A stretch of 64,000 nucleotides of DNA. Source: a virus. Taxonomy: Duplodnaviria; Caudoviricetes. The stretch is from the IMG/VR virus record IMGVR_UViG_3300046460_000097. One strand, 5' to 3'. Numbering within the stretch: position 1 is the stretch's first letter; each line of letters opens with the position of its first letter. The notes beneath the pieces are model-generated. The model saw only the letters and a program-made list of their open reading frames with translations, searched no databases and was not told where the DNA came from. Position numbers and translations under genes: made by a program. This document shows, one piece after another, positions 3,273-64,000 of the stretch.

Positions 3273-3581
3273 ATGCCTTCAAAAGAACACGGTCCGGTGA
3301 TTACTATTACTGGACTTGATAAAGAGCTTGGACAACACATCTTCAAGTTGGTTGCTAACGCTCTTGCAGATAACAATGTTCGAGGTCTGGTTCGTGTTGA
3401 ACATGCTGAACGTCCTCACTTCCTGTTTGCTTCGGCATCGCAGGTAGATGAAGCGGTTGGCATCCGGGTTGGTATTGGTGGGGAACATTCTGTCGTACTC
3501 AACCCGGGCATCATGCTTGACGGGCACTTCACTCTCGAAGAGCTCGATGGTATCTCGTACAAGTTGCGCGGCGGGGTCTAA
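3273..3581 (+). CDS. Hypothetical protein
   Basis: GAGGAG RBS, operon context. Confidence 0.7.
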   Translation: MPSKEHGPVITITGLDKELGQHIFKLVANALADNNVRGLVRVEHAERPHFLFASASQVDEAVGIRVGIGGEHSVVLNPGIMLDGHFTLEELDGISYKLRGGV

Positions 3582-3643
3582 CTTCGCCTTCTTGTTGTAA
3601 ACCACTTACCGGGGAACACTCGATTCCCCGAATTACTGGAGTA

Positions 3644-4204
3644 ATGATCATGGCTAGTCTTTTTCGTAATCGTACACTGTCCAATGCCTTTCCTCAACGT
3701 AACGTAGTTATTGAGTCGACTGGTGTCCGCAGTAAGAATGATGACATCCTCTTCCGCTGCTCGATTGACTTCGGCTACAGCGGTAAGTTGCTGCGCGGTA
3801 TCAGCATCAAGGCTGTTGGCAACACGTTCAAGAACATTACCAAGGATCTGCGTGAATACCAAGAAAGTATTGGTGAGATCGTTTCGATCATGACTGCCTT
3901 GAAAACTTGGGCAGCCGATGTGCGTCACAGTAATGGTGACCTTGCAGCACCTGACGATATCTTCAATCAGGTACTGTGCGAAGAACACCCGCTGATGTTT
4001 CATGCGGTGCGTAACAGTAAGGGTATTTCCTTCAAGATCTTTGGTGAAGGCCTGCACGACTTGGAAATTGCAATGGACTACAAACAGGCCGTCGCATTCC
4101 GTTCGTTTAACATCAAGATTGATTCCATCATCAATGCGTTTAACGCGCACCTGGCGGACATCAAGAACACCTCTCTCGCCACCATTCTGCAAGGAGCAGC
4201 TTAA
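3644..4204 (+). CDS. Hypothetical protein
   Basis: GGAG RBS, operon context. Confidence 0.75.
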   Translation: MIMASLFRNRTLSNAFPQRNVVIESTGVRSKNDDILFRCSIDFGYSGKLLRGISIKAVGNTFKNITKDLREYQESIGEIVSIMTALKTWAADVRHSNGDLAAPDDIFNQVLCEEHPLMFHAVRNSKGISFKIFGEGLHDLEIAMDYKQAVAFRSFNIKIDSIINAFNAHLADIKNTSLATILQGAA

Positions 4205-4672
4205 ATGCGTAAGTTTGTGATGTTGTTGCTGTTGTCTCTGGTATCGTTGTCTGCTATGGCTAAAACCATGCAGTGTACCGAGTTCGGTCATACCGATCTT
4301 AGCGCAGACGGTCAGCCAATGAAGATGACCAAACGTGTAACCTCGTTTAACATCGAAGATGATAAAGTCATTGTCGGTGCTGATGTTTACGTCATGGGTG
4401 ATCCTAGTAAGGTTGACCTAGAAGGTTTGGCGATCACTTACTTCCAGCAAGATGATGACAAGGTCCTGTACCTCTACATCAACGAGCAGGATCAGGAAGA
4501 GATCGGTATCAGTCGTCTGCGCCACGACAGTGACGACATGTTCGAAGATAAGTCTGTTTTCTCTGGGTGTTCTTTTGAAGTACCCGCCACGAAACAGATG
4601 AAGGTACGTGATACAAGCCGAGCTGTAGATGTCAGAAGGGTGAACAACACTCTTCCAGTTTACAGCTTCTAA
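4205..4672 (+). CDS. Secreted/periplasmic protein (signal peptide, two Cys)
   Basis: MRKFVMLLLLSLVSLSAMA-K classic Sec signal; AGGAG RBS. Confidence 0.8.
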   Translation: MRKFVMLLLLSLVSLSAMAKTMQCTEFGHTDLSADGQPMKMTKRVTSFNIEDDKVIVGADVYVMGDPSKVDLEGLAITYFQQDDDKVLYLYINEQDQEEIGISRLRHDSDDMFEDKSVFSGCSFEVPATKQMKVRDTSRAVDVRRVNNTLPVYSF

Positions 4673-50689: not shown

Positions 50690-53600
50690 TTACACAGTCA
50701 CAGATGGACCAGTTGGCTTACCGTTGCTGTTGATCTGGAGCAGTTGCTCGTGGATCGCTTTCAGCAAGGCGTTCTGTTGTTCACCGAGCGGTTGCATTAC
50801 TGCCGCAACTGCTTCACCCACTGGCTGCTGTTCCACTACAGGGGATTCCTTATAGCTCGGACCAGGCAGAGGCAGAGGTGTTTGATTAGGCTGAGTAACC
50901 TGATCGTAGGTTTTAGGCGCACCAGGCGACTTACCGTATCCTTCTGGCATCGGTTGTTGCTGAGGCGCTCTAGGAGCACCACCGTTAGGCAGAGGAAGAC
51001 CAGTGTAGCCATCAATCGATGCAACAGCGTTACCATTCACCAGCGGTTGCTTGGCATTCTCAGCAGCAGCCTTAATCATTTCTGGCGTAGCTACTGTCGA
51101 GGTGTCAGGTGGAGCAGAAGGCATGCCACTTGGAGCGGCTTCTGCCTGAGGTTCTGCACCTGTGCCACCTGGTAGTGTGTCTTGCCCGTTCTCTTGGTTT
51201 GCACCCGCCGCTGCAGCATACTTATCCGCTGCCTCTTTGGACTTAAACCCAACGTGCACGTGACCACCAGTAGCACCCGCTGAAGCTTTACGGTATTCGT
51301 TGATGATCAAGAAGTCAGCAGGCACCATACCGGCAGAACGAAGGATCTCGTTTACCACACCTACCGCTTGGTCACTTCCGTTAATACCGTTGGTCAGTGT
51401 GAAGTCCAACGCCAAGCCTACAGCATGCTTAGAGTTAGGCTTCTTGTTACGGTGATAAGCGTCGTTCAAAGCAGTGAACTGCTTGAAGTTCTGCACACGC
51501 GATTGAATGATGCTCGCCAAACGAGTGATAGCCGGATGAGACGGACCACCAGCAATGGTTTCAGACGACTTAAGCCGTAGACCGCCGTTGTTAATCCCTA
51601 CACCACCACCTACCAGTGAAGTACCTTCACCACCACCGCCACCATAACTACCGCCATCTGGATTACCACCCGGAGCGATCATGCTTGGGGGAGTTCCGTA
51701 AGCACTGCTGTTACGCAGGCCACCGCCAGGGGCTGCACCCATAGAAGGTGTGTTACCACCGATCATAGGGGCCGAACCACCACCCGCACTGCTACCGCCA
51801 CCACTTGGAGCCCCGCCACCGTACATCGATCCAGCTGTCTGAGAAGCCGACGCGTTGGTACCCGCCGCACTTTCTTCATCCGCCTTCAACGAACCACTCT
51901 GAAGTTGCTTCAGGTAGTCGGTGTAGAGCGCAAAGCGTTTAGGCATGCCAGGCAGTTGGTTACCACCGTTCAAGCCTGTAGCCGCAGTACCGAAGTCACC
52001 GGACTGTGTAATGCTTTGCAACAGCTTACTGTTCTTGTAGAAGTTGACAGCAATAGCCGCCATTACGTTTGGATCGTTGGAAGCAAGCTCTGGTTTGTTC
52101 TCCAGATCAATGCCCAGCTGCTGACCGATCTTCGCATACTTCTCGCGACCTGTCAGTTGAACGAATCCTCGACCACGATACTTCCAGCCATCGCCGGGAG
52201 CTTTGTTACCGAGAGACTGCCCTTTACCACCGCCATAGACCGTGTTCGCAATAGCCACTTCGCCAGCCTGAATCAACTGACGAGCCTGATCAATGTTGGT
52301 GACTTCCTTAAAGGTCTTCACCAAGTTCTCAGGGCTAGTGTACTTCATGTTTTCAACAGTTTTGCTGTAACCACCTGTTTCGTAGTTGGTCAGCGCCAGC
52401 ATCTCAGCGATTGCACGAGGGTCAGTGAAGCCTTGTTTCAACATCTCGCGAATGATCAACTGTTCTGCTAGATTCTTCGGAACCTTCACGCCGTGGTCAT
52501 CACCACCGTCAGCAGGGCGAACCCCGCTCAAGTCCAAGTGACTAGTATCGCTACTGCCAGTCAGAGGTTTGTACCCGTACTTGTTCTCAGGCGTCTGATA
52601 AGCACCCAGTTGGTTATAGGTGTTACCAGTACCCGCACCACGAGTAGTGTTGGTCCCGTACATGCCGCCCAGCGCCACATCACGAGTGCTCTTCGCCTGA
52701 TCTGCAGTTTGGGTGTTAGCCTGCTTCTCAGTGAAACCACCGCCCGTCTTGTGAGGGGAGATCGTGTTAGCCCACGCTTGTGTACTGGTTTTACCCGCTT
52801 CGCCTTCAGGGTCTTTCATCTTCGCAGTAACGGAAGCTTCACCCAGCAGATTCAACATCCGTTCGACCTTAGCCGACTTGTCTGGGGAAGTACCGTCTTT
52901 AAACGGAGACGCACGCACGTTCCAGATAGAGGTAGAAGTGTTAGAGAACCACCCCGAGATCTCTACCTGAGTTTCGATCAACTTACGAGCGATTTCATAA
53001 CGAGCGGTTACCGACAGGGTCTTCCAAACTGCGCCCGGCAAACCTTTACGGTAGGCTTGCATTGCACTGATGTAACTAGACATGACAGGAATGAAACGAT
53101 CACGGAACCAGAGGCACCAGTCGTCTGCATCACCCTTGTCCAGTCGGAAGGACTCTTTGAACAAACCAAAGATGTCACCCACCAAACCCTTGAACTCGAT
53201 CTTGTCACCAGAGATGACGAACAGGGATTCGCAATAACGCTCAAGCTTCAGCACCGCCTCAACACGCCAGAGCAGATCTTGGTCGTTACCGTAGCACGCC
53301 AACCGGATACCCGTCAGCAGGTCAACAGGACGATCATCAGGGAGCATGTCCTTAATGAACACTTGAGCAACCGCAGGAGCCACTTTGTAGGTGGTGTTCA
53401 GCTGTTGCAATTGTCCGTCGATAGCTGCCAAACGTTTCTTGGCTTCTAGACGTGCGCCACCCGGATCTTCCTCGTTAGCAAACGCTTTACGAGGATCGGC
53501 GAGTTGTGCTTCGAGCTTGGCCTTCTCTGCCTGCAATGCACCAGCACCCATGGCGGTGACTACAGTACCCTTATCCTCACCTTCAGTTTTGCGGTCAATG

Positions 53601-56600
53601 TAAACGCGCAATTCTTCCAGCAAGTTGTTGACTTTGATGACGGTGATCTTCTCGCCCATGATAGGCGTATCAATGTCGATCTTGGCAACGATAGAGTAAG
53701 GATAGGGCATTACCCCTGCCAACGTCTGGTGAGTCTGCTTGGCAACCTTCAGCACGTCCTGTGTCTTCGCGTCGTCGTAGTCCTTCAGGTTCTTGATCTT
53801 CACCACATCCAAACAGGCCATGTAGGTGAGGAACACCGGCTTGAAACGACCGTTGAACCATGAGTAGATGTCGCCCATTTGTTTCTTGTTACCGGGCTCC
53901 GTCACGAACATTTGAAGAACTTTATCCAGAGGAGCGCTCTTCGACAACGATGCACGAGCATTACCGATGACCACATGGTCAGTCAGCATTTCCTCGATTT
54001 GCAGGATCTTCTTGGCCAGATCAGAATCAGGATCACTGATACCGTATTGCGCCATCCGGATTTCGTACTGCTTACCCGAACCACGCGTAACGTAGCGATA
54101 GATCCCGTAGCCAGCCGCGGCGATACCCAGCGCAGCCAAGGTGTAAGGGTTGAACAACAGAGGAGCCAGCATACCGGCACCTGCGGTTAATCCACCCCAA
54201 GCCATCCCTGCACCAGTAACGGCAACAGCACCTAGATCGACACCCACCACACCCGCAACAGCAGCAGCTGTTTGATAGGCACCGTAAGCTGTAGCAGCAT
54301 CTCCAGCGAACCCTGCTACCTTATCGATAGCTCCGCCTTCATCGATGACACCCGAGCTTGCCAGCGCATCTGTGGCCATGCCTACGGCCATACCAGCACC
54401 GAGCCACTTACCGCCACGCATCACACGACCGCCAGGAGTCTTGCGCTCAGCCGAACGAGCAGCCTTCTCTTCCTTGGTACGCTTCTTCTTCCGCAGGGTA
54501 TCTGTAAAGTCACCCATGCCCTCACCCAGACTCCGTGTCTTCAGTAAGGTAAAGATCCCCTTGGCCACAGCTGTAATGCCTGTAGCGATCATTGGGAGCG
54601 TTCTGATACCGATGGTGCTGAACCGACCCAGACTTTTCCACCACGACTTGGCAAAGAACTTCGTGAGGAAGGAAGTGACACTGAAGAGACCACCGGTGAT
54701 AGCAGCGATACCGCTACCAATCAAACCAAAAAGACCCATGCCGGCTTTCTTCTTGGCTTCTTTACCCGGACCACCAGCACCCAATGCACCTGCGATGTTG
54801 ATGATGGACTCGTCACGCTTCGTAGCCAGTGCTTCCTTAGCCTGAAGTGCCAAGTCTGCAGCCGAGTTGAGACGGAGACCTTCATGGCCTTCACCTTTAC
54901 CCATACCTGCCGCGCGCTGGTCAGCGAGTTTGGAGAACTCACGGAAAGTACCCGGACCGTTCTTGAAGCCACGGTCTTCTTCCTCACGGCGAGCGATCTC
55001 CTCTGGCGGAACCTCGTTAGGAGGAGTTACCGGCATAGGTGGAACGACAGGCGCTACCACCGTAGGAGCAGAAGCTTCAGGAGGCGACGTAGGAAGGCCC
55101 TTAGGGCGGAACACCAACGGAGGTGTAGGCTTGGATGCAGCCACTGGTTTAGGTACCGGAGCCGAGGCTACAGTTGCTTCTACCGGTGGAGTCACAGCCG
55201 ACGGAGTAACAGGCGCTACAGGCGCAGTAGCTGCAGTCGATTCAACTGGAGGAGGTGGTGCCAGTTCCTCATGGGCATAACCCCAGTGCTTCAAGAGCAG
55301 GTGATAGATACGATCCACCGAGTTCACGATAGGAGAGTAGTCAGCCTTGAAAGCGCCAGCCACTTTGTCCTTAGCACCCGCCATGTGAGGAGCGGCCTTC
55401 GCCTTAACCTTCGCCATGAAGTCCATGCTGAGTTTGCCAAACCGACGAGAAGCTTCGCCCAGCTTGTTAACACTCACACCCATGGAAGTCTTCAGACCAC
55501 GATCATAGTCTTCCTGAGTAATCAGTACTTGACCATCTTTATCGTAAACAGGCCCGTCGATCTCGTTCCAACCGTTGATCTGTACCGCGTAGCCGTCTTC
55601 CCCACGCTTCCAGTATTCACCCAATGCAAACTTGGTGCCTGCCAGAATTGGAGACTCGTCCCCTTCCTTGTACACGTCCATCTGGTAGAAGCGGGTGACC
55701 AGCTTATTCTTCAGCGCAATAGCTCGACCGAATGGATCGATGAACTTAAACGCCTTGATAGCCAGATCTCGTACTTTACTCAGCCCATTGAGGAACACTT
55801 CCTTGTTCTCTTTGGTGAAGAGTTTAGCCGCTAAACGACGAGCGCCGATAAAGACTTTGGTAGCGTTATCCCACACACTGCCGCTGATCTCTTTCCAAGA
55901 GGTAATGATCGTGCTCTTGGTAGCGTCGTAGTAATCCTTACGCTGCAGCTTCCATGCCTCCAGAATCGGTTGGTCGGCACCTTCTTCATAAAGGTCTTCC
56001 GAGTCCTCTGCTGCACGGGCATTCGCCATACTGCGGATCTTGCCGTAAGCCAGAGCTGCCGCGGCACCACCACCGATCAGCGCTGCCGCTTTAGGGTTGT
56101 GGAACGCCATGGTAGCCAAGCCACCCAACAAGCCGCCCAAGATCAGAGGTTCGTGGTCCAGGAGTTTGTCGACCCCATTGTTGAACATGTCCTTAAAGTT
56201 GGTTTCACGCAGACGATCGATGATGCCACGTTTTGTAGCGTTAACTTCTTTCTCTTCCTGACTCGATTCCCGCTTGCCGGGTTGGTTGTTGAGCATGCGA
56301 GTCAGGATATCGTTGCGAGTACCTGCCAGCGTGATCAGTTCGGCCACACGCTCGTTGAGGTCGGACACACCTTTGCTCAGAGGAGCCATGTCCATCGCTT
56401 GGTTCATCGGGTGGTTTTGACCCAACCCAGCGATAGCAGCCTTCAGATCACCAATACTGCCTAGCGATTCTGTCAGCTTGTCCATCCCTTGCACTTTGAT
56501 GCCATCAGGACCGACCTGAGAGTCGTCAGACGCTCTTTTAGGATCCGTGATAGGGCTCAGGCTCGGGTTGTGGTTACCGCCGAATGCACGCGACCTCAGA

Positions 56601-58807
56601 GGCACCAAGTCTTCTTCAACAATAGCAGGACGGTATTCGGGATTAGCGATGAAGTTGCTCATCGTGTTCCAGAACAGATCCATGTTGACATCATCGCGAC
56701 CGAACTCGTCAGTAGTGATCAGACCAGCTTCCTTCAAAGCGTCGTAGCTGCCGTTGCTTTTCAGCAGGTCCATCCGTTTGGTCATGTCAGGAACAATGTT
56801 CCCCAGACTACGGTTAGCATCCGCTACACCCACAACTTTTGCACGGGCCTTCTCGGTAGGCAACATGCCAGCCATGCCGATACGGTCGAGGTCAGTACCG
56901 TCCCTGAACTGGGTAATGTGGTCGTCGGTGATGTCGAACTCAGCCTTCATTGCACGGCGGATCTCGGCAGCAATCTTCGGAGAGGTGATTCCCTTCTCAT
57001 CCAAGTTCATGAAGCGATAAGGAACGAACGCCTTGTTCTGGTCAGCGTCCTTAATCAACTGGAGCGACAGAACCTTCTTGGCCTCAGGGCTCAAACCGCT
57101 GTTACCCGCGATGCTATCTGCAAGGTTGTTAGCTGCTTGGGCGGCTGGCGCGAACTGGTTGTGGTCCAACACCAAGTTAGTAGCACGGGCTACCTTCTGT
57201 TGATGGGTATTGAAACGGCTTCGGGTATAGTCGTAAGACCACGCCTTCATTCCGTCATCACCAGTACGGAACTTCTCGATCGACAAGTGAATCTGACTCA
57301 GCCATTGCGGCAGGATCTCGTTCAGTGTGCGGTCGCTGCGACGAGTCCACAGTTGCTGCTCGTGCATGTCCTCCAGTGTACGCCCTTCCAGCGAGTAGCG
57401 AGAACCGCTGCTGTTCCAGGTGTTGCTGTAAACGTGACCCAGTCCTTTGTTAGCTGTGCTCTTCAGGGTCTTGAGGATGTTCCACTCAATCTTGCTGATT
57501 GGCTTCTTACCGGCCGGCAGGGTTGCGAGGTATTCATCATAGTCCACGACTTCGTTGTATTCGAAGCCGCCGTTGTAGAACTCGGACAAGCTGTTGGCTA
57601 AGCCTTCAGCGTTACCCGTTGCATAGGACGCAACGTTACCCAAGTCTTCCAAACGTTTGTAAGCGTCTTCAGCCCACTTGGCAAAAGCAGGGAATTGCTT
57701 CTTGAACTTGCCGAGGTATTCTTGACCTTTGTTCGACTTGAACATACGCGGCAGGTTGTTGAGGAAGATCCCCGCTGCTGCGTTACCCAGCATGTCGCCC
57801 ATGTTGATAGGCGCGCCTTCGGTCATCTCAGAAGCCATGCGCAGACTGCTGGCTACGTCAGCAATACCACCTACCGCACCTTCGCGAGCATCCTTACCGA
57901 AACGCTCGTTAATGAAGTCAGAGATACCACCGAACTTGCTCTTGACCGTACTGAACACTTCATCACGCAAAGCTTTACGAACAGCCTGACTGTGAGAGGT
58001 CTTCTCGTAGTCGGACATCTTCGAGAACTTGCTGATGTCTTTCAATTCAGCGATGAGACGGTGCTGTGCAGCTTCCTGGAACTTGAAGTACTTAGCCTGA
58101 GTCAGGTAGGTACGAGTCGCCACGTTCAAATGCATGGCATCTGTACGAGCCTGCACACGACGCTGATGATCGAGCAACTGTTCCAACAACTGGTTACTGC
58201 GAACGACCGTACGGCTGATGGCGCCGATACCAGCGATCTGGCGACCACCAATCTCGTTCATCATGCCAATCGTACGATCGGCCACCATGGTCATCGTATC
58301 GCGTTCGAGCAGGGAGTTAGCGTCTTCGTTCTGAAGTTGTGCTGCTACCTCTTCCTGACTAACGTCGCCACCCATGGAGGGAGCATCAGGACCACTCGAA
58401 TAATCGCGCTTTTCCCAGTCACTGAAGTCGTGTTCTGAGAACTTATATAGCCCATCGGAGATTTTATTAGGGGTGCCTTTAGCTAACTTGTCCGCACCAC
58501 GTTTTGCCAGGTACTGGAGATCCTGTACAGTTTGATAACTGTCCCCTTTAATTTCCTCCATGACCTCTTTGCGACGATCATTGAGTTGCTGCACGTTACT
58601 GAAGGCACTCAGCCAGGTGTTAGGCAGTGCCATCTTGAGTGTGTTGATTTTGGCGTCAGTGTCGCCGACGGATTTGCTGACGATACCGGACAAGAAACCG
58701 GTAGTGAAGCTACGGATAAACCCTTTCTTAGGCTTATCGAAATCGTCATCAAAGTCTAGATCGCCACCGAAGGGATCATCATCCCATTTGAAATCATCAT
58801 CGGCCAT
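50690..58807 (-). CDS. Giant tail (tape-measure-like) protein with GH19 lysozyme and M15-type peptidase domains (phiKZ gp181-like)
   Basis: 2705 aa; ETGG..EN.KY, GDGWKYRGRGFVQLTGREKY (GH19); SKHAVGLALDF...GGHVHV (M15); head-to-head with RNAP beta'. Confidence 0.85.
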   Translation of the reverse strand: MADDDFKWDDDPFGGDLDFDDDFDKPKKGFIRSFTTGFLSGIVSKSVGDTDAKINTLKMALPNTWLSAFSNVQQLNDRRKEVMEEIKGDSYQTVQDLQYLAKRGADKLAKGTPNKISDGLYKFSEHDFSDWEKRDYSSGPDAPSMGGDVSQEEVAAQLQNEDANSLLERDTMTMVADRTIGMMNEIGGRQIAGIGAISRTVVRSNQLLEQLLDHQRRVQARTDAMHLNVATRTYLTQAKYFKFQEAAQHRLIAELKDISKFSKMSDYEKTSHSQAVRKALRDEVFSTVKSKFGGISDFINERFGKDAREGAVGGIADVASSLRMASEMTEGAPINMGDMLGNAAAGIFLNNLPRMFKSNKGQEYLGKFKKQFPAFAKWAEDAYKRLEDLGNVASYATGNAEGLANSLSEFYNGGFEYNEVVDYDEYLATLPAGKKPISKIEWNILKTLKSTANKGLGHVYSNTWNSSGSRYSLEGRTLEDMHEQQLWTRRSDRTLNEILPQWLSQIHLSIEKFRTGDDGMKAWSYDYTRSRFNTHQQKVARATNLVLDHNQFAPAAQAANNLADSIAGNSGLSPEAKKVLSLQLIKDADQNKAFVPYRFMNLDEKGITSPKIAAEIRRAMKAEFDITDDHITQFRDGTDLDRIGMAGMLPTEKARAKVVGVADANRSLGNIVPDMTKRMDLLKSNGSYDALKEAGLITTDEFGRDDVNMDLFWNTMSNFIANPEYRPAIVEEDLVPLRSRAFGGNHNPSLSPITDPKRASDDSQVGPDGIKVQGMDKLTESLGSIGDLKAAIAGLGQNHPMNQAMDMAPLSKGVSDLNERVAELITLAGTRNDILTRMLNNQPGKRESSQEEKEVNATKRGIIDRLRETNFKDMFNNGVDKLLDHEPLILGGLLGGLATMAFHNPKAAALIGGGAAAALAYGKIRSMANARAAEDSEDLYEEGADQPILEAWKLQRKDYYDATKSTIITSWKEISGSVWDNATKVFIGARRLAAKLFTKENKEVFLNGLSKVRDLAIKAFKFIDPFGRAIALKNKLVTRFYQMDVYKEGDESPILAGTKFALGEYWKRGEDGYAVQINGWNEIDGPVYDKDGQVLITQEDYDRGLKTSMGVSVNKLGEASRRFGKLSMDFMAKVKAKAAPHMAGAKDKVAGAFKADYSPIVNSVDRIYHLLLKHWGYAHEELAPPPPVESTAATAPVAPVTPSAVTPPVEATVASAPVPKPVAASKPTPPLVFRPKGLPTSPPEASAPTVVAPVVPPMPVTPPNEVPPEEIARREEEDRGFKNGPGTFREFSKLADQRAAGMGKGEGHEGLRLNSAADLALQAKEALATKRDESIINIAGALGAGGPGKEAKKKAGMGLFGLIGSGIAAITGGLFSVTSFLTKFFAKSWWKSLGRFSTIGIRTLPMIATGITAVAKGIFTLLKTRSLGEGMGDFTDTLRKKKRTKEEKAARSAERKTPGGRVMRGGKWLGAGMAVGMATDALASSGVIDEGGAIDKVAGFAGDAATAYGAYQTAAAVAGVVGVDLGAVAVTGAGMAWGGLTAGAGMLAPLLFNPYTLAALGIAAAGYGIYRYVTRGSGKQYEIRMAQYGISDPDSDLAKKILQIEEMLTDHVVIGNARASLSKSAPLDKVLQMFVTEPGNKKQMGDIYSWFNGRFKPVFLTYMACLDVVKIKNLKDYDDAKTQDVLKVAKQTHQTLAGVMPYPYSIVAKIDIDTPIMGEKITVIKVNNLLEELRVYIDRKTEGEDKGTVVTAMGAGALQAEKAKLEAQLADPRKAFANEEDPGGARLEAKKRLAAIDGQLQQLNTTYKVAPAVAQVFIKDMLPDDRPVDLLTGIRLACYGNDQDLLWRVEAVLKLERYCESLFVISGDKIEFKGLVGDIFGLFKESFRLDKGDADDWCLWFRDRFIPVMSSYISAMQAYRKGLPGAVWKTLSVTARYEIARKLIETQVEISGWFSNTSTSIWNVRASPFKDGTSPDKSAKVERMLNLLGEASVTAKMKDPEGEAGKTSTQAWANTISPHKTGGGFTEKQANTQTADQAKSTRDVALGGMYGTNTTRGAGTGNTYNQLGAYQTPENKYGYKPLTGSSDTSHLDLSGVRPADGGDDHGVKVPKNLAEQLIIREMLKQGFTDPRAIAEMLALTNYETGGYSKTVENMKYTSPENLVKTFKEVTNIDQARQLIQAGEVAIANTVYGGGKGQSLGNKAPGDGWKYRGRGFVQLTGREKYAKIGQQLGIDLENKPELASNDPNVMAAIAVNFYKNSKLLQSITQSGDFGTAATGLNGGNQLPGMPKRFALYTDYLKQLQSGSLKADEESAAGTNASASQTAGSMYGGGAPSGGGSSAGGGSAPMIGGNTPSMGAAPGGGLRNSSAYGTPPSMIAPGGNPDGGSYGGGGGEGTSLVGGGVGINNGGLRLKSSETIAGGPSHPAITRLASIIQSRVQNFKQFTALNDAYHRNKKPNSKHAVGLALDFTLTNGINGSDQAVGVVNEILRSAGMVPADFLIINEYRKASAGATGGHVHVGFKSKEAADKYAAAAGANQENGQDTLPGGTGAEPQAEAAPSGMPSAPPDTSTVATPEMIKAAAENAKQPLVNGNAVASIDGYTGLPLPNGGAPRAPQQQPMPEGYGKSPGAPKTYDQVTQPNQTPLPLPGPSYKESPVVEQQPVGEAVAAVMQPLGEQQNALLKAIHEQLLQINSNGKPTGPSVTV

Positions 58808-60457: not shown

Positions 60458-63400
60458 ATGCAGCAACCTATTGAACTGAGAGGTTTCTTGCAGTCTGTAG
60501 CCGGGTTGGAGTGGTTAGACCAACCCTTGGGCGTTGCTTGCCCTCTGGCTGCTGTGACTGGCAGTGAAGCACTGGCTCAGTACGCAATGTTCTACAAAGC
60601 GTTTGTACAACGCAAGAAGCAAGAGTTGGTATCGCCTAACTTCATTGGCATCGGTGAGATCATTCTCCCACGGGCTTCGTTGGTTCATTACTTCCCGGCT
60701 AACCCTCTGGAAGTAGGTCCTACCACTTCTGAAGCATTCATCAGTAACTATCCTGATGATGTGTTCGTCGAGTTCCCTACACACTTCACTCCGGTAATTG
60801 GTAGTGGGCGTGCGGTGGCCATTGAAGTCCGTAAGGTTATCCAGGGATATCGTGCGAGTCATTACACGTATAACTGGACCAAGGACATCGGTACCGTTTA
60901 CAATAAAGACAAAGTGTTGATCGTCAAGACTTACGGTCTGATCGACAAGATGTGGGTTGCTCGTCCTTCGATGTTCATTAACTTCGAGCGACACTACAAC
61001 CGTTATTCGATGCTGATGGATAGCATCAACGCAGAAGCTGTTAAGGGTAAGCGTAAGCAGTTCTTCCGTATTGACCTGCCGTTGCACCTGCCTAGCTTCA
61101 GTGAACTGTTGATCGATTACGATCACTACATCGAAAGCTTTAAAGACGGCATTCCACATGCCAGTAACAAAACCGTTCGCTTGACCAAAGCAGAAAGCTC
61201 GTATTGGTTGATGGACTGGATGGCCTACCTCTTCGGGGATACCGAGTACAGCTTGTTCGGCAAGTTGACTCCTGAAGCCATCGACAGCATGCACCTGATC
61301 TTTGCTTTCAACAGTCGTTCCTTGGTGCTGCATCTGGGTACGCTGAAAGGCTGGTTGGACGAACTGCTGGAAAGCAAGTACGCACCAAAGGAAGGTAAAG
61401 GTCCCGAGAGTCATCGTGCAGGGCATCCAAAGCGTCTGAACGTGTCTAAGCGGGTTTACCTCGCATTGTTGAACCTCACTCGTGGTGGCATTAGTGAAGG
61501 AGAAGTTGTAAAGGAGGAGGAAAATGTCAGAGAAGGAGAAGAGGCCGAAGCGTCTGGCTCTGTGGCTGCAGCAGCGAAGGGATCTGAGAAAGGAAAAGGA
61601 CGAGCATCCAGCGAAGGAGGAGGGGGCAAAGTTTCTGGCAAGATTGACACTGCCCCAACTGTTTCTGGTGGTGGCTCTATCCTTGATGTTCTCGATCCTG
61701 TTCAAAGAGTGGACAGCGGAGATGCTGAAGGGACCGGACAAGAGGGAGACGCAAGCGATCCTGAGAGCGTTGAGGAATGGACATCCCATGTAGATGACAC
61801 TCTACTGGAACAAGAGTCCACTGTTACCGAAACCTCTACCGCCAAGGATCCGTTCCCTAAGCTGGAGAGTGGTATCTCCGCAGCTCTTGAAGAACGTGCA
61901 CGTGATGGCGTCCTGACGGTTGCTGAGCAACAGTTCTTCATGCGTAAGGGTACCCAAGTCTACAAGATCAAGATGGAGAACGGCCAGACGCTGGCTGAGT
62001 TCATTGAGATCGACGACAAGGAACTGAAGACCCTCAGCAGTGACGCCAAGATCGAAGGTAACTTCCCCACTATTCTCGATGAGAGTATGTTGGTGAGTCG
62101 TGCCAAGGTATTGAAGCAGGGCTATGTGGATAAGTTCCTCCACAAAGATACTGCTCGTATGGTTGTCAGTATTCAGAACGCTGGCTTTGCTCTCAACGAT
62201 TTCAAACACACCATTGTTTCCGGTGTTGAAGGTTCCTATGACGTCTATGGGTTCCAAGTTCATCATGTTGATGGCGAACAATCGACTCACCAGATCCGCA
62301 TGCCTCGCGTGGGCAAGGATGGTGCGTTCATGGTCGACGGCGTTAAGACCCACCTCCAACTGCAACGGATGGAGCTGGTGGTTCGCAAGATTGGTAAAGA
62401 CAAGGTTGCACTGACCACCCACTACGACCGTAAGCTGATGATCTCTCGCAGCAAGAAGGTAGTAGACGACCTAGGTCTGTGGATGGTCAAGCAAGTCCTC
62501 CTGAAGGCCTCTGTGGCTGCGAACGGGATTACCTTGAGCCGTGGTAGCGGTTACAACAAAGACTTGGTCAGTCCGCGTATCTACAGCCTCTTTGCCACCA
62601 AGTTCCAATGGATCGCCAAAGGTGACATTACCTTGGACTTCCGCATCGACAAGTTGCTGGAAGAGTACCCTCAGTTCAAGAAGTACACCAAGCAGGACAT
62701 GTTCCTTATTGGCGTGAAGGACAAGAAGCCGTTGACCATCGACAGTTACGGTAACCTGTACCTGGACGAGAAAGAGTTCAACACCATTGAAGGTCTGCTG
62801 GATATCCATGGCGCCAAGACTCCTAGCGAGTACGCCGTGATCAACATCAGCGGTTACCCGTTCCCGATGGGTGTTGTGCTCTGCTACTACTTTGGTATTG
62901 ATGAGCTGTTAAAGGTTATCAAAGCGGAAACTCGCTCGGTGCCTATGGGTACCCGTCCGAAGTTGGGGCCTGACGAATATTCCATCCAGTTTAACGACGA
63001 GTATCTGATCTTTAACCGTCGTGAGAAGCTGACCACCTTGATCTTCGGTGGCATGCCTAAGTTGACCAACATCAGTAACTTCAGTCGAAGTGACCTGAAC
63101 AACAAAGGCATTTGGGGTCCTTTGATGGGGGATCCGAAAGTCCGTCCACAACAGTTCTTGGAAATGAAGAACCTCTACGACATGTTCATCGACCCGATCT
63201 CCAAAGATCAGTTGAAGCGCATGGGGTACTCCACTTCCTTCCACCACCTGCTGATTGACGCTACGAAGCTGCTGGAGACCGATTACACTCGACACGGTGT
63301 AGAGATCGAGGAACAACGGGTCGTTGGCTACGAGCGCTTTGCGGGGCACATGTACCGTGAGCTGGTGAGCTCTGTTCGTAAGTTCCGCAGTAAGGGCAAG

Positions 63401-64000
63401 GGTCGTAAGCAGAAACTCGACATTAACCCTGAAGCGGTGATTGTGAACATCCTCAAGGACACCTCGGTGAACTTGGTAGAGGAAGTTAACCCGATTCACC
63501 AATGTAAGGATCAGGAAGAGCTGACCTTCGGTGGTACGGGTGGTCGTAGTGGTATCACCGTCGTTAAGCGTGACCGTGTTCAGTTGGACAGTTACCGGGG
63601 CATTGTGTCTGAGGCGAACAAGGACAGCGGGCAAGTAGGTTTCGTTACCTACCTGACTTCTGACCCTCGCATCGAAGACTACCGGGGCAACATCAACCTC
63701 AAGGAGAAACCTTCCTTGACGGGTATTAACTCGGTAACGGGTAACTTGGCTTTTGGTATGTCTAAGGACGACCCTAAGCGGGGGATGTTTACCAGCACAC
63801 AGGCTAGCCAAGCGGTCAGCGCACAGAACTACAGCCCGAACATCAGTCGTACCGGTTATGACAACATCATCGCACACCGTACTTCCGAGTTGTACAGTAA
63901 GGTGGCGAGCGATGACGGTAAGGTGACTCAGGTTACCGACGACATGCTGGAAGTGACGTATGCGGATGGGACTGTCGACAAATACCCTCTGGGTCTGGAG
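60458..64000 (+). CDS. rpoB: Virion RNA polymerase beta subunit, large N-terminal part (phiKZ gp178-like), runs off the right edge
   Basis: ATG 60458 after GGAGG; frame read open at the start, the 61.4-61.9 kb insert and the end; EVNPIH..KDQEELTFGGTGGR, YRGIVSEANKDSGQVG match RpoB. Confidence 0.9.
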   Translation, partial: MQQPIELRGFLQSVAGLEWLDQPLGVACPLAAVTGSEALAQYAMFYKAFVQRKKQELVSPNFIGIGEIILPRASLVHYFPANPLEVGPTTSEAFISNYPDDVFVEFPTHFTPVIGSGRAVAIEVRKVIQGYRASHYTYNWTKDIGTVYNKDKVLIVKTYGLIDKMWVARPSMFINFERHYNRYSMLMDSINAEAVKGKRKQFFRIDLPLHLPSFSELLIDYDHYIESFKDGIPHASNKTVRLTKAESSYWLMDWMAYLFGDTEYSLFGKLTPEAIDSMHLIFAFNSRSLVLHLGTLKGWLDELLESKYAPKEGKGPESHRAGHPKRLNVSKRVYLALLNLTRGGISEGEVVKEEENVREGEEAEASGSVAAAAKGSEKGKGRASSEGGGGKVSGKIDTAPTVSGGGSILDVLDPVQRVDSGDAEGTGQEGDASDPESVEEWTSHVDDTLLEQESTVTETSTAKDPFPKLESGISAALEERARDGVLTVAEQQFFMRKGTQVYKIKMENGQTLAEFIEIDDKELKTLSSDAKIEGNFPTILDESMLVSRAKVLKQGYVDKFLHKDTARMVVSIQNAGFALNDFKHTIVSGVEGSYDVYGFQVHHVDGEQSTHQIRMPRVGKDGAFMVDGVKTHLQLQRMELVVRKIGKDKVALTTHYDRKLMISRSKKVVDDLGLWMVKQVLLKASVAANGITLSRGSGYNKDLVSPRIYSLFATKFQWIAKGDITLDFRIDKLLEEYPQFKKYTKQDMFLIGVKDKKPLTIDSYGNLYLDEKEFNTIEGLLDIHGAKTPSEYAVINISGYPFPMGVVLCYYFGIDELLKVIKAETRSVPMGTRPKLGPDEYSIQFNDEYLIFNRREKLTTLIFGGMPKLTNISNFSRSDLNNKGIWGPLMGDPKVRPQQFLEMKNLYDMFIDPISKDQLKRMGYSTSFHHLLIDATKLLETDYTRHGVEIEEQRVVGYERFAGHMYRELVSSVRKFRSKGKGRKQKLDINPEAVIVNILKDTSVNLVEEVNPIHQCKDQEELTFGGTGGRSGITVVKRDRVQLDSYRGIVSEANKDSGQVGFVTYLTSDPRIEDYRGNINLKEKPSLTGINSVTGNLAFGMSKDDPKRGMFTSTQASQAVSAQNYSPNISRTGYDNIIAHRTSELYSKVASDDGKVTQVTDDMLEVTYADGTVDKYPLGLE
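61524..61793 (+). CDS. Candidate overprinted 89-aa single-TM membrane protein inside the RNAP beta gene (+1 frame)
   Basis: AAGGAGGAGG SD before ATG; TM LTLPQLFLVVALSLMFSILF; anomalous codon use in the host frame. Confidence 0.45.
   Translation: MSEKEKRPKRLALWLQQRRDLRKEKDEHPAKEEGAKFLARLTLPQLFLVVALSLMFSILFKEWTAEMLKGPDKRETQAILRALRNGHPM

Follow-up and report, generated by a model that had tools for sequence, protein, structure and literature searches.

A Probable Overprinted Gene and Its Host Gene

We describe here a small gene that very probably is genuine and translated, and that lies entirely within another gene, the virion RNA polymerase (RNAP) beta gene of a jumbo phage. The DNA analysed, hereafter the window, is the 64,000 nucleotides of IMG/VR record IMGVR_UViG_3300046460_000097, of which positions 60,458 to 63,400 are shown above. 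Its source is an uncultured jumbo phage from soil or rhizosphere belonging to the EL-like, nucleus-forming (phiKZ-like) group, and DNA near-identical to the window occurs in about 19 studies of soil, rhizosphere and wetland. The beta protein is 58% identical to EL RNAP beta and matched 301 phage records in all (tblastn). On a near-identical contig, L001 (IMG/VR 3300028597_000009; 0.6% nucleotide difference from the window), the full stop-to-stop beta frame comprises 1490 codons, or ~1479 amino acids (aa) from the ATG matching 60458. The features of the locus are as follows.

60458..64000, continuing past the window end, plus strand: virion RNA polymerase beta gene, homologue of phiKZ gp178 and EL gp186-187
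61511..61520, plus strand: Shine-Dalgarno (SD) sequence AAGGAGGAGG, with a 3-nucleotide spacer before the internal ATG
61524..61793, plus strand: overprinted gene in the +1 frame of beta, 89 aa plus TAG (61791-61793)
61524..61643, plus strand: basic N-terminal domain of the product, residues 1-40, predicted cytoplasmic, with an invariant Trp in P-x-W-L-x-(E/Q)-R-R
61644..61703, plus strand: transmembrane (TM) helix, residues 41-60 (AlphaFold2 helix 43-68), placed by hydropathy and alignment
61704..61790, plus strand: charged amphipathic C-terminal tail, residues 61-89, predicted periplasmic, with conserved K-G-P-D-K-R-E-x-E-x-I-L-K-x-L-K-x-G

The overprinted open reading frame (ORF) sits in an acidic, disordered linker of the polymerase. 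The initial annotation, made from the letters of the window, had proposed at this place a strong SD followed by an ATG at 61524, an 89-aa +1 frame, and a product with a charged N-terminus, one TM segment and an amphipathic tail; all of these are found where it had put them. It had also remarked on about ten GGA and two AGA codons in the insert. Our count gives GGA for 9 of 17 Gly codons in the insert versus 2 of 81 in the remaining beta gene, and AGA for 2 of 3 Arg codons versus 1 of 54, an aberrant usage that is consistent with dual-coding constraint. Only 21 ATGs in the whole window are preceded by a strong SD, the majority being true gene starts, and the SD of the overprinted ORF is stronger than that of most window genes. 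The internal gene would thus be initiated independently, at its own SD and ATG, and its synthesis would fall late in infection, from the mRNA that carries beta and the downstream endolysin.

Conservation and Origin

Relatives of the gene were reachable only via the host protein, beta. Searches of the phage collection with the DNA of the gene or of the insert (megablast, blastn), as well as tblastn of the 89-aa product against the same collection, gave no match; profile searches against collections of 5.8 and 1.8 billion proteins yielded nothing but gene calls of this very ORF on short fragments (5 calls among the 5.8 billion), apart from two repeat proteins that are spurious and match the basic N-terminus. 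The ORF is annotated in none of the carrier records, and we found no description of it in the literature.

In the beta-protein tree the carriers form a coherent group: the ORF occurs in every member sampled (16 of 16) of a clade that is supported at 100/100. The cultured carriers are EL, RisingSun, Miami/BUCTxx100, phiKT1019, AhC3_1, N1M2, FishSpeaker, pEt-SU and Aeromonas D6, accompanied by nine further distinct soil contigs with 56-72% beta identity; five more variants of the ORF are known as database fragments. In EL, the internal ATG stands at about 197,725 of the record, within gp186. It is absent from seven outgroup phages, namely Desertfox (the sister), RP12, MJ359, Yaphecito, SPN3US, PS119XW and phiKZ. 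Every copy in the clade has the ATG, an SD-like, purine-rich ribosome site before it (16/16), a basic N-terminus, one TM helix and a stop at the homologous place, and +1 is the sole alternative frame open in all 16 relatives. The initial annotation had looked to the orthologous beta genes for the fate of its nested frame; openness, SD and TM segment are conserved in every member of the clade, with neither +1 stops nor SD loss in any of the 16. The tree is most simply read as one gain with no later loss. The gene would date from the common ancestor of one branch of nucleus-forming jumbo phages (EL / RisingSun / Miami / Vibrio / Aeromonas) and would have passed to every sampled descendant.

The position of the start codon bears on how the frame would be entered. 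A programmed +1 ribosomal frameshift from the polymerase frame would not yield a separate 89-aa protein but a shortened beta N-terminal domain with a membrane anchor attached; a strong SD-like element does lie just upstream, such elements being known to stimulate prfB frameshifting, and in some relatives the open +1 frame extends 16-21 codons upstream of the ATG. Most close relatives, however, have a +1 stop 4-5 codons upstream of it, which makes such a fusion unlikely; moreover, we found no conserved slippery or hungry codon, and the ATG keeps a constant distance from the conserved W-L motif in all relatives. A frameshift product is accordingly most improbable.

Selection on the +1 Frame

Substitution rates at RNAP codon positions 1, 2 and 3 are 0.250, 0.147 and 0.105 inside the ORF versus 0.086, 0.050 and 0.293 in the remaining gene, so that within the overlap RNAP-synonymous sites evolve three times slower and RNAP first positions three times faster. 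Synonymous-site constraint, for which the initial annotation had proposed a scan, is seen in these rates. In a sliding window, the inverted periodicity is limited to 61520-61760, and the most extreme of 293 90-codon windows starts at 61520, four bases from the ATG. Read in the frame of the ORF, substitutions fall in the order position 3 > 1 > 2 in each of four independent close pairs. The classes of change point the same way: 731 differences are +1-silent and RNAP-replacing versus 352 of the reverse class, where ~1:1 is expected, these being pairwise counts that are not phylogenetically independent. Near-identical natural strains repeat the pattern, since 42 of 45 single-nucleotide polymorphisms (SNPs) outside the ORF are RNAP-synonymous versus 1 of 4 inside it (Fisher p=0.004); the other three in-ORF SNPs replace RNAP residues and are silent in the +1 frame, and the RNAP-synonymous one exchanges R for K in +1, which is conservative. 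The dual-coding constraint that the initial annotation had read from codon usage is therefore visible as purifying selection in the +1 frame, in periodicity, substitution classes and SNPs alike. Within the overlap, selection on the overprinted protein is stronger than selection on the polymerase linker.

Could the frame be conserved without being translated, because the RNAP linker is itself constrained (in composition, by a short linear motif or by mRNA features), or by low-complexity chance? Several observations weigh in favour of this explanation and against a gene. A +1 stop needs NTA or NTG codons and the linker contains few Leu, Ile, Val or Met residues, so that openness alone is cheap: synonymous resampling of RNAP codons according to the usage of the gene left the +1 frame free of stops in 7-91% of trials, the figure varying with lineage (a probability of up to 0.91). 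The initial annotation had itself cautioned that SD-like strings arise from K/E codons such as those of KEEE and hydrophobic +1 residues from T-ending codons, and rightly so. Conserved RNAP-frame residues overlap part of the TM segment and the C-terminus: the M/L-F-S of the TM helix overlies the RNAP motif LDVF, and the final ~8 +1 codons fall where the RNAP frame dominates (conserved EEWTSHV), so that +1 conservation is partly forced in both places. The periodicity signal is saturated in distant pairs, and no RNA data set with this stretch is listed among public runs. Composition, on the other hand, leaves unexplained the slow RNAP-synonymous and fast RNAP first positions bounded by the ORF, the 2:1 excess of +1-silent changes, and the strain SNPs that replace RNAP residues yet are +1-silent. 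An open frame together with a TM-grade stretch arose in only 0.05-6.5% of resamplings in 15 of 16 lineages (N1M2, 29%); ATG, TM segment and stop are kept in 16 of 16 lineages despite a linker that is only 28% identical among them; and the invariant Trp overlies polymerase residues that vary. We therefore consider an untranslated ORF very unlikely.

Two further features of the overlap were noted. In the RNAP frame, the motif (S/P)-[IL]-L-D-[VA]-F (window 61660-61700) stands in the middle of the otherwise unconserved linker, directly under the overprinted TM helix; the polymerase may use it for interactions, as a linear motif, or it may be a mere shadow of the +1 constraint. An antisense ORF of 424 aa (60515..61789, minus strand) was rejected as an artefact that mirrors beta codon for codon; stops interrupt it in 11 of 16 relatives, and it is open here because TTA, CTA and TCA codons are rare.

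The Predicted Membrane Protein

The 89-aa product carries 13 K/R versus 8 D/E in residues 1-40 (net charge +5), followed by the hydrophobic stretch LTLPQLFLVVALSLMFSILF at residues 41-60, whose 17-residue Kyte-Doolittle mean is 2.25. The AlphaFold2 model is all-helical (helices 9-27, 32-39, 43-68 and 71-84), with a modest mean predicted local distance difference test (pLDDT) score of 67. Hydropathy of the TM segment lies between 2.0 and 2.75 in 14 of 16 tabulated relatives, with lower values in lineage L012 (1.55) and Aeromonas D6 (1.88); the helix measures ~20 residues and is immediately preceded by a conserved F-L-A-K/R. In the tail, 10 of 29 residues are charged. The proteins measure 84-97 aa in ten tabulated clade lineages, with FishSpeaker (80 aa) and Aeromonas D6 (108 aa) beyond these limits. 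From this profile the product is in all likelihood a single-pass membrane protein, and that the locus harbours a genuine overprinted gene for a membrane protein is highly probable. The long charged N-terminus suggests an N-in/C-out topology.

Lysis Context and Candidate Functions

The gene order around the ORF is kept among relatives: a tail lysin on the minus strand, the beta' N-terminal subunit, beta, the endolysin and a small ORF. In the window, the first of these is a tail-lysin/tape-measure-like protein of 2705 aa (50690-58807, minus strand), a homologue of phiKZ gp181 in which Pfam recognises a chitinase-type GH19 domain (E=2.5e-6). Beta and the endolysin overlap in ATGA, where one stops and the other starts; the endolysin is modular, with PG_binding_1 and lysozyme domains, and is a homologue of EL gp188 (EL188), the published EL endolysin (PMC3352856). 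The initial annotation had placed the endolysin after this RNAP gene in EL and OBP, and for EL this is correct, gp188 directly following beta. An endolysin-like gene comes after beta in EL, RisingSun, Miami, BUCTxx100, phiKT1019, N1M2, FishSpeaker, pEt-SU, Aeromonas D6 and L001, the last being the soil contig examined in this respect; the carrier AhC3_1 has a longer hypothetical gene there instead. Among the seven non-carriers, an endolysin after beta is missing in six, Desertfox being the exception.

The label of holin, antiholin or spanin that the initial annotation had attached to the gene fares unevenly. A spanin is rejected, the TM domain (TMD) being central, the periplasmic tail only ~28 aa long and a lipobox missing, while a canonical spanin pair is encoded elsewhere; the holin reading is weakened by the gp109-like gene described below; an antiholin or other lysis accessory is plausible.

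The strongest form of the holin reading would make the product the principal holin of the clade, a class III-like, single-TMD, N-in/C-out protein that would build up in the inner membrane and, on triggering, release the endolysin encoded downstream, by analogy with phiKZ gp142. Its size, single TMD and charged hydrophilic C-terminus resemble those of holins, and it shares an operon with the endolysin. No gp142 homologue was detectable in EL, RisingSun or Miami, and the gross topology is that of gp142, an experimentally proven class III(B) holin encoded by a free-standing gene in a five-gene lysis cassette (PMC12894885). A small protein from the same phage family, gp142 crosses the membrane once, between an N-terminal domain in the cytoplasm and a short C-terminal tail in the periplasm, as is predicted for our product; it too belongs to a late lysis context, its endolysin being a transglycosylase. 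The two differ in that the N-terminal domain of gp142 is 80 aa long and binds the regulator gp143, as opposed to a 40-aa basic N-terminus, and its gene is free-standing rather than nested in an RNAP gene, and holin activity is only putative here. Profile comparison detects no homology between them (hhalign probability 0.6%). The search for gp142 homologues returned only phiKZ and PS119XW, as one cluster; as gp142 is undetectable in ORF-less phages too, its absence from the carriers is uninformative.

The genes around the clade's spanins also bear on the assignment. EL and Miami have a separate i-/o-spanin pair at a distant locus. Convergent beside this pair lies a two-TMD gene family, that of EL gp109, with an invariant G-W-P-S-E loop; members were found in all clade genomes examined (EL, RisingSun, Miami and seven soil contigs) and in Desertfox. 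Unannotated and class-II-holin-like, the gp109-like protein is a more conventional holin candidate for the clade. The curated annotation of Miami names the spanins and puts no holin label on this neighbouring two-TMD gene, a point in favour of the principal-holin reading. Desertfox, on the other hand, has the gp109-like gene and an endolysin after beta and manages without the overprinted ORF. The ORF itself lies 3.6 kb upstream of the endolysin, in the same operon but not adjacent to it, and Pfam, PHROGs and the ESM Atlas, searched with the product, gave nothing informative. These points weigh against a lysis role in general and the principal holin in particular, which we regard as improbable.

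Further observations belong to the same loci. The EL spanin region lies at 115947-116631 of the EL record (minus strand), which is 3948-4632 of its piece L052, and gp109 lies at 3515-3886 of that piece. EL gp111 is i-spanin-like, its TMD being N-terminal and its periplasmic part helical. The annotated gp110 seems to begin too late for the EL o-spanin, whose true start would fall within the 3' half of gp111, and which carries a lipobox ...LILVG|C. Both gp110 and gp111 are 'hypothetical' in RefSeq, whereas their Miami homologues are annotated as i-/o-spanin. No homologue of EL gp108-112 was found within the 64-kb window.

Given the separate spanin pair and the gp109-like gene, an accessory or regulatory role is likelier than that of 'the holin'. 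We suggest that the most likely role of the overprinted gene would be that of an inner-membrane lysis modulator, be it an antiholin, a holin partner or a second holin, because of the shape of its product and its place in a late operon, upstream of an endolysin gene. Taken broadly, a lysis-related role of any kind is plausible at somewhat under an even chance, with a regulator or antiholin as its most likely form.

A function outside lysis deserves comparable weight, and we hold it to be a serious possibility that likewise stays below an even chance. The gene is in all probability real and its product a membrane protein, no biochemical finding links it to lysis, and the gp109-like protein, spanins and endolysin may already cover the canonical lysis functions. 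The protein could then serve in superinfection exclusion, in membrane remodelling or anchoring during nucleus-forming infection, or in protection from the phage's own wall-degrading enzymes, two muralytic genes flanking it (the GH19 tail lysin upstream and the endolysin downstream). Superinfection exclusion proteins are exemplified by Imm and Sp of T4. Early functions, exclusion among them, fit poorly with a place inside the late gene of a virion protein, the periplasmic tail is short, and no homology or motif for any specific alternative was found in Pfam, PHROGs or the ESM Atlas.

Comparison with Other Overprinted and Lysis Genes

Overprinted lysis genes are well known from small phages, namely E of phiX174, in the +1 frame of D, and L of MS2, in +1 over the coat and replicase genes. 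Like the gene described here, they arose de novo over an essential gene, in its +1 frame, and code for ~75-90 aa with a single hydrophobic helix, preceded in MS2 L, as here, by a basic N-terminal half. Sequence similarity to our product is absent, and E and L achieve single-gene lysis in tiny genomes without an endolysin, whereas this phage has a genome of >200 kb, an endolysin and spanins. In lambda, Rz1 is a same-strand gene fully nested in another frame of Rz, with its own SD and start and an envelope protein as its product; it differs in being a lipoprotein that is paired functionally with the product of its host gene, while our product has no lipobox, its host gene encodes an RNA polymerase subunit of unrelated function, and the spanins of the clade lie elsewhere. 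Finally, RI and RIII of T4 are small accessory proteins (~80-100 aa) that tune holin triggering, RI being membrane-tethered; unlike what is predicted here, the periplasmic domain through which RI acts comes off the membrane, and RIII resides in the cytoplasm.

Overprinting that gives a phage a small envelope protein is therefore a classical theme. What is new is an orphan family nested in an RNAP linker, in genomes of >200 kb, in which the new frame dominates selection. As jumbo phages have ample coding space, overprinting kept for so long is not due to genome compression. The locus offers a clear natural case in which a disordered stretch linking parts of an essential enzyme has given rise to a new protein. 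Phages in study and use thereby gain a conserved membrane protein that is unannotated and that gene callers systematically miss: Pseudomonas phage EL and the jumbo phages of Erwinia, Klebsiella, Vibrio and Aeromonas, which have been proposed for biocontrol. A bolder and rather doubtful proposal is that the gene arose de novo as a lysis-timing component of the EL branch, its missing holin or antiholin. Were this true, birth inside the virion RNAP gene would couple production of the protein mechanically to that of a virion component and of the endolysin encoded downstream, so that particle assembly and the lysis clock would be linked by design of the locus. The gene is in any event a concrete candidate for lysis control in jumbo phages beyond phiKZ, and it is genetically testable because a knockout is possible with the polymerase protein unchanged.

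Neighboring Genes and Other Observations

The small ORF that follows the endolysin, like EL gp189, was considered as a holin and rejected, since it has no TMD and matches phiKZ gp177.1, which follows gp178 without an endolysin. It encodes a soluble protein of ~55 aa with the motif ...ANVTE-VK-T--K-GL-(Y/F)--PLD..., placed after the endolysin, or after beta where there is no endolysin, and conserved family-wide (L001:8396-8570 region, EL gp189, RisingSun gp232, Miami gp235, phiKZ gp177.1); one record describes it as a virion protein.

In EL, FishSpeaker and Yaphecito, beta is split into two ORFs ~400 bp apart, and in EL and FishSpeaker an HNH endonuclease gene lies just upstream of beta. Together, the split and the HNH gene suggest a recurrent insertion site for an intron or homing element, downstream of the overprinted gene.

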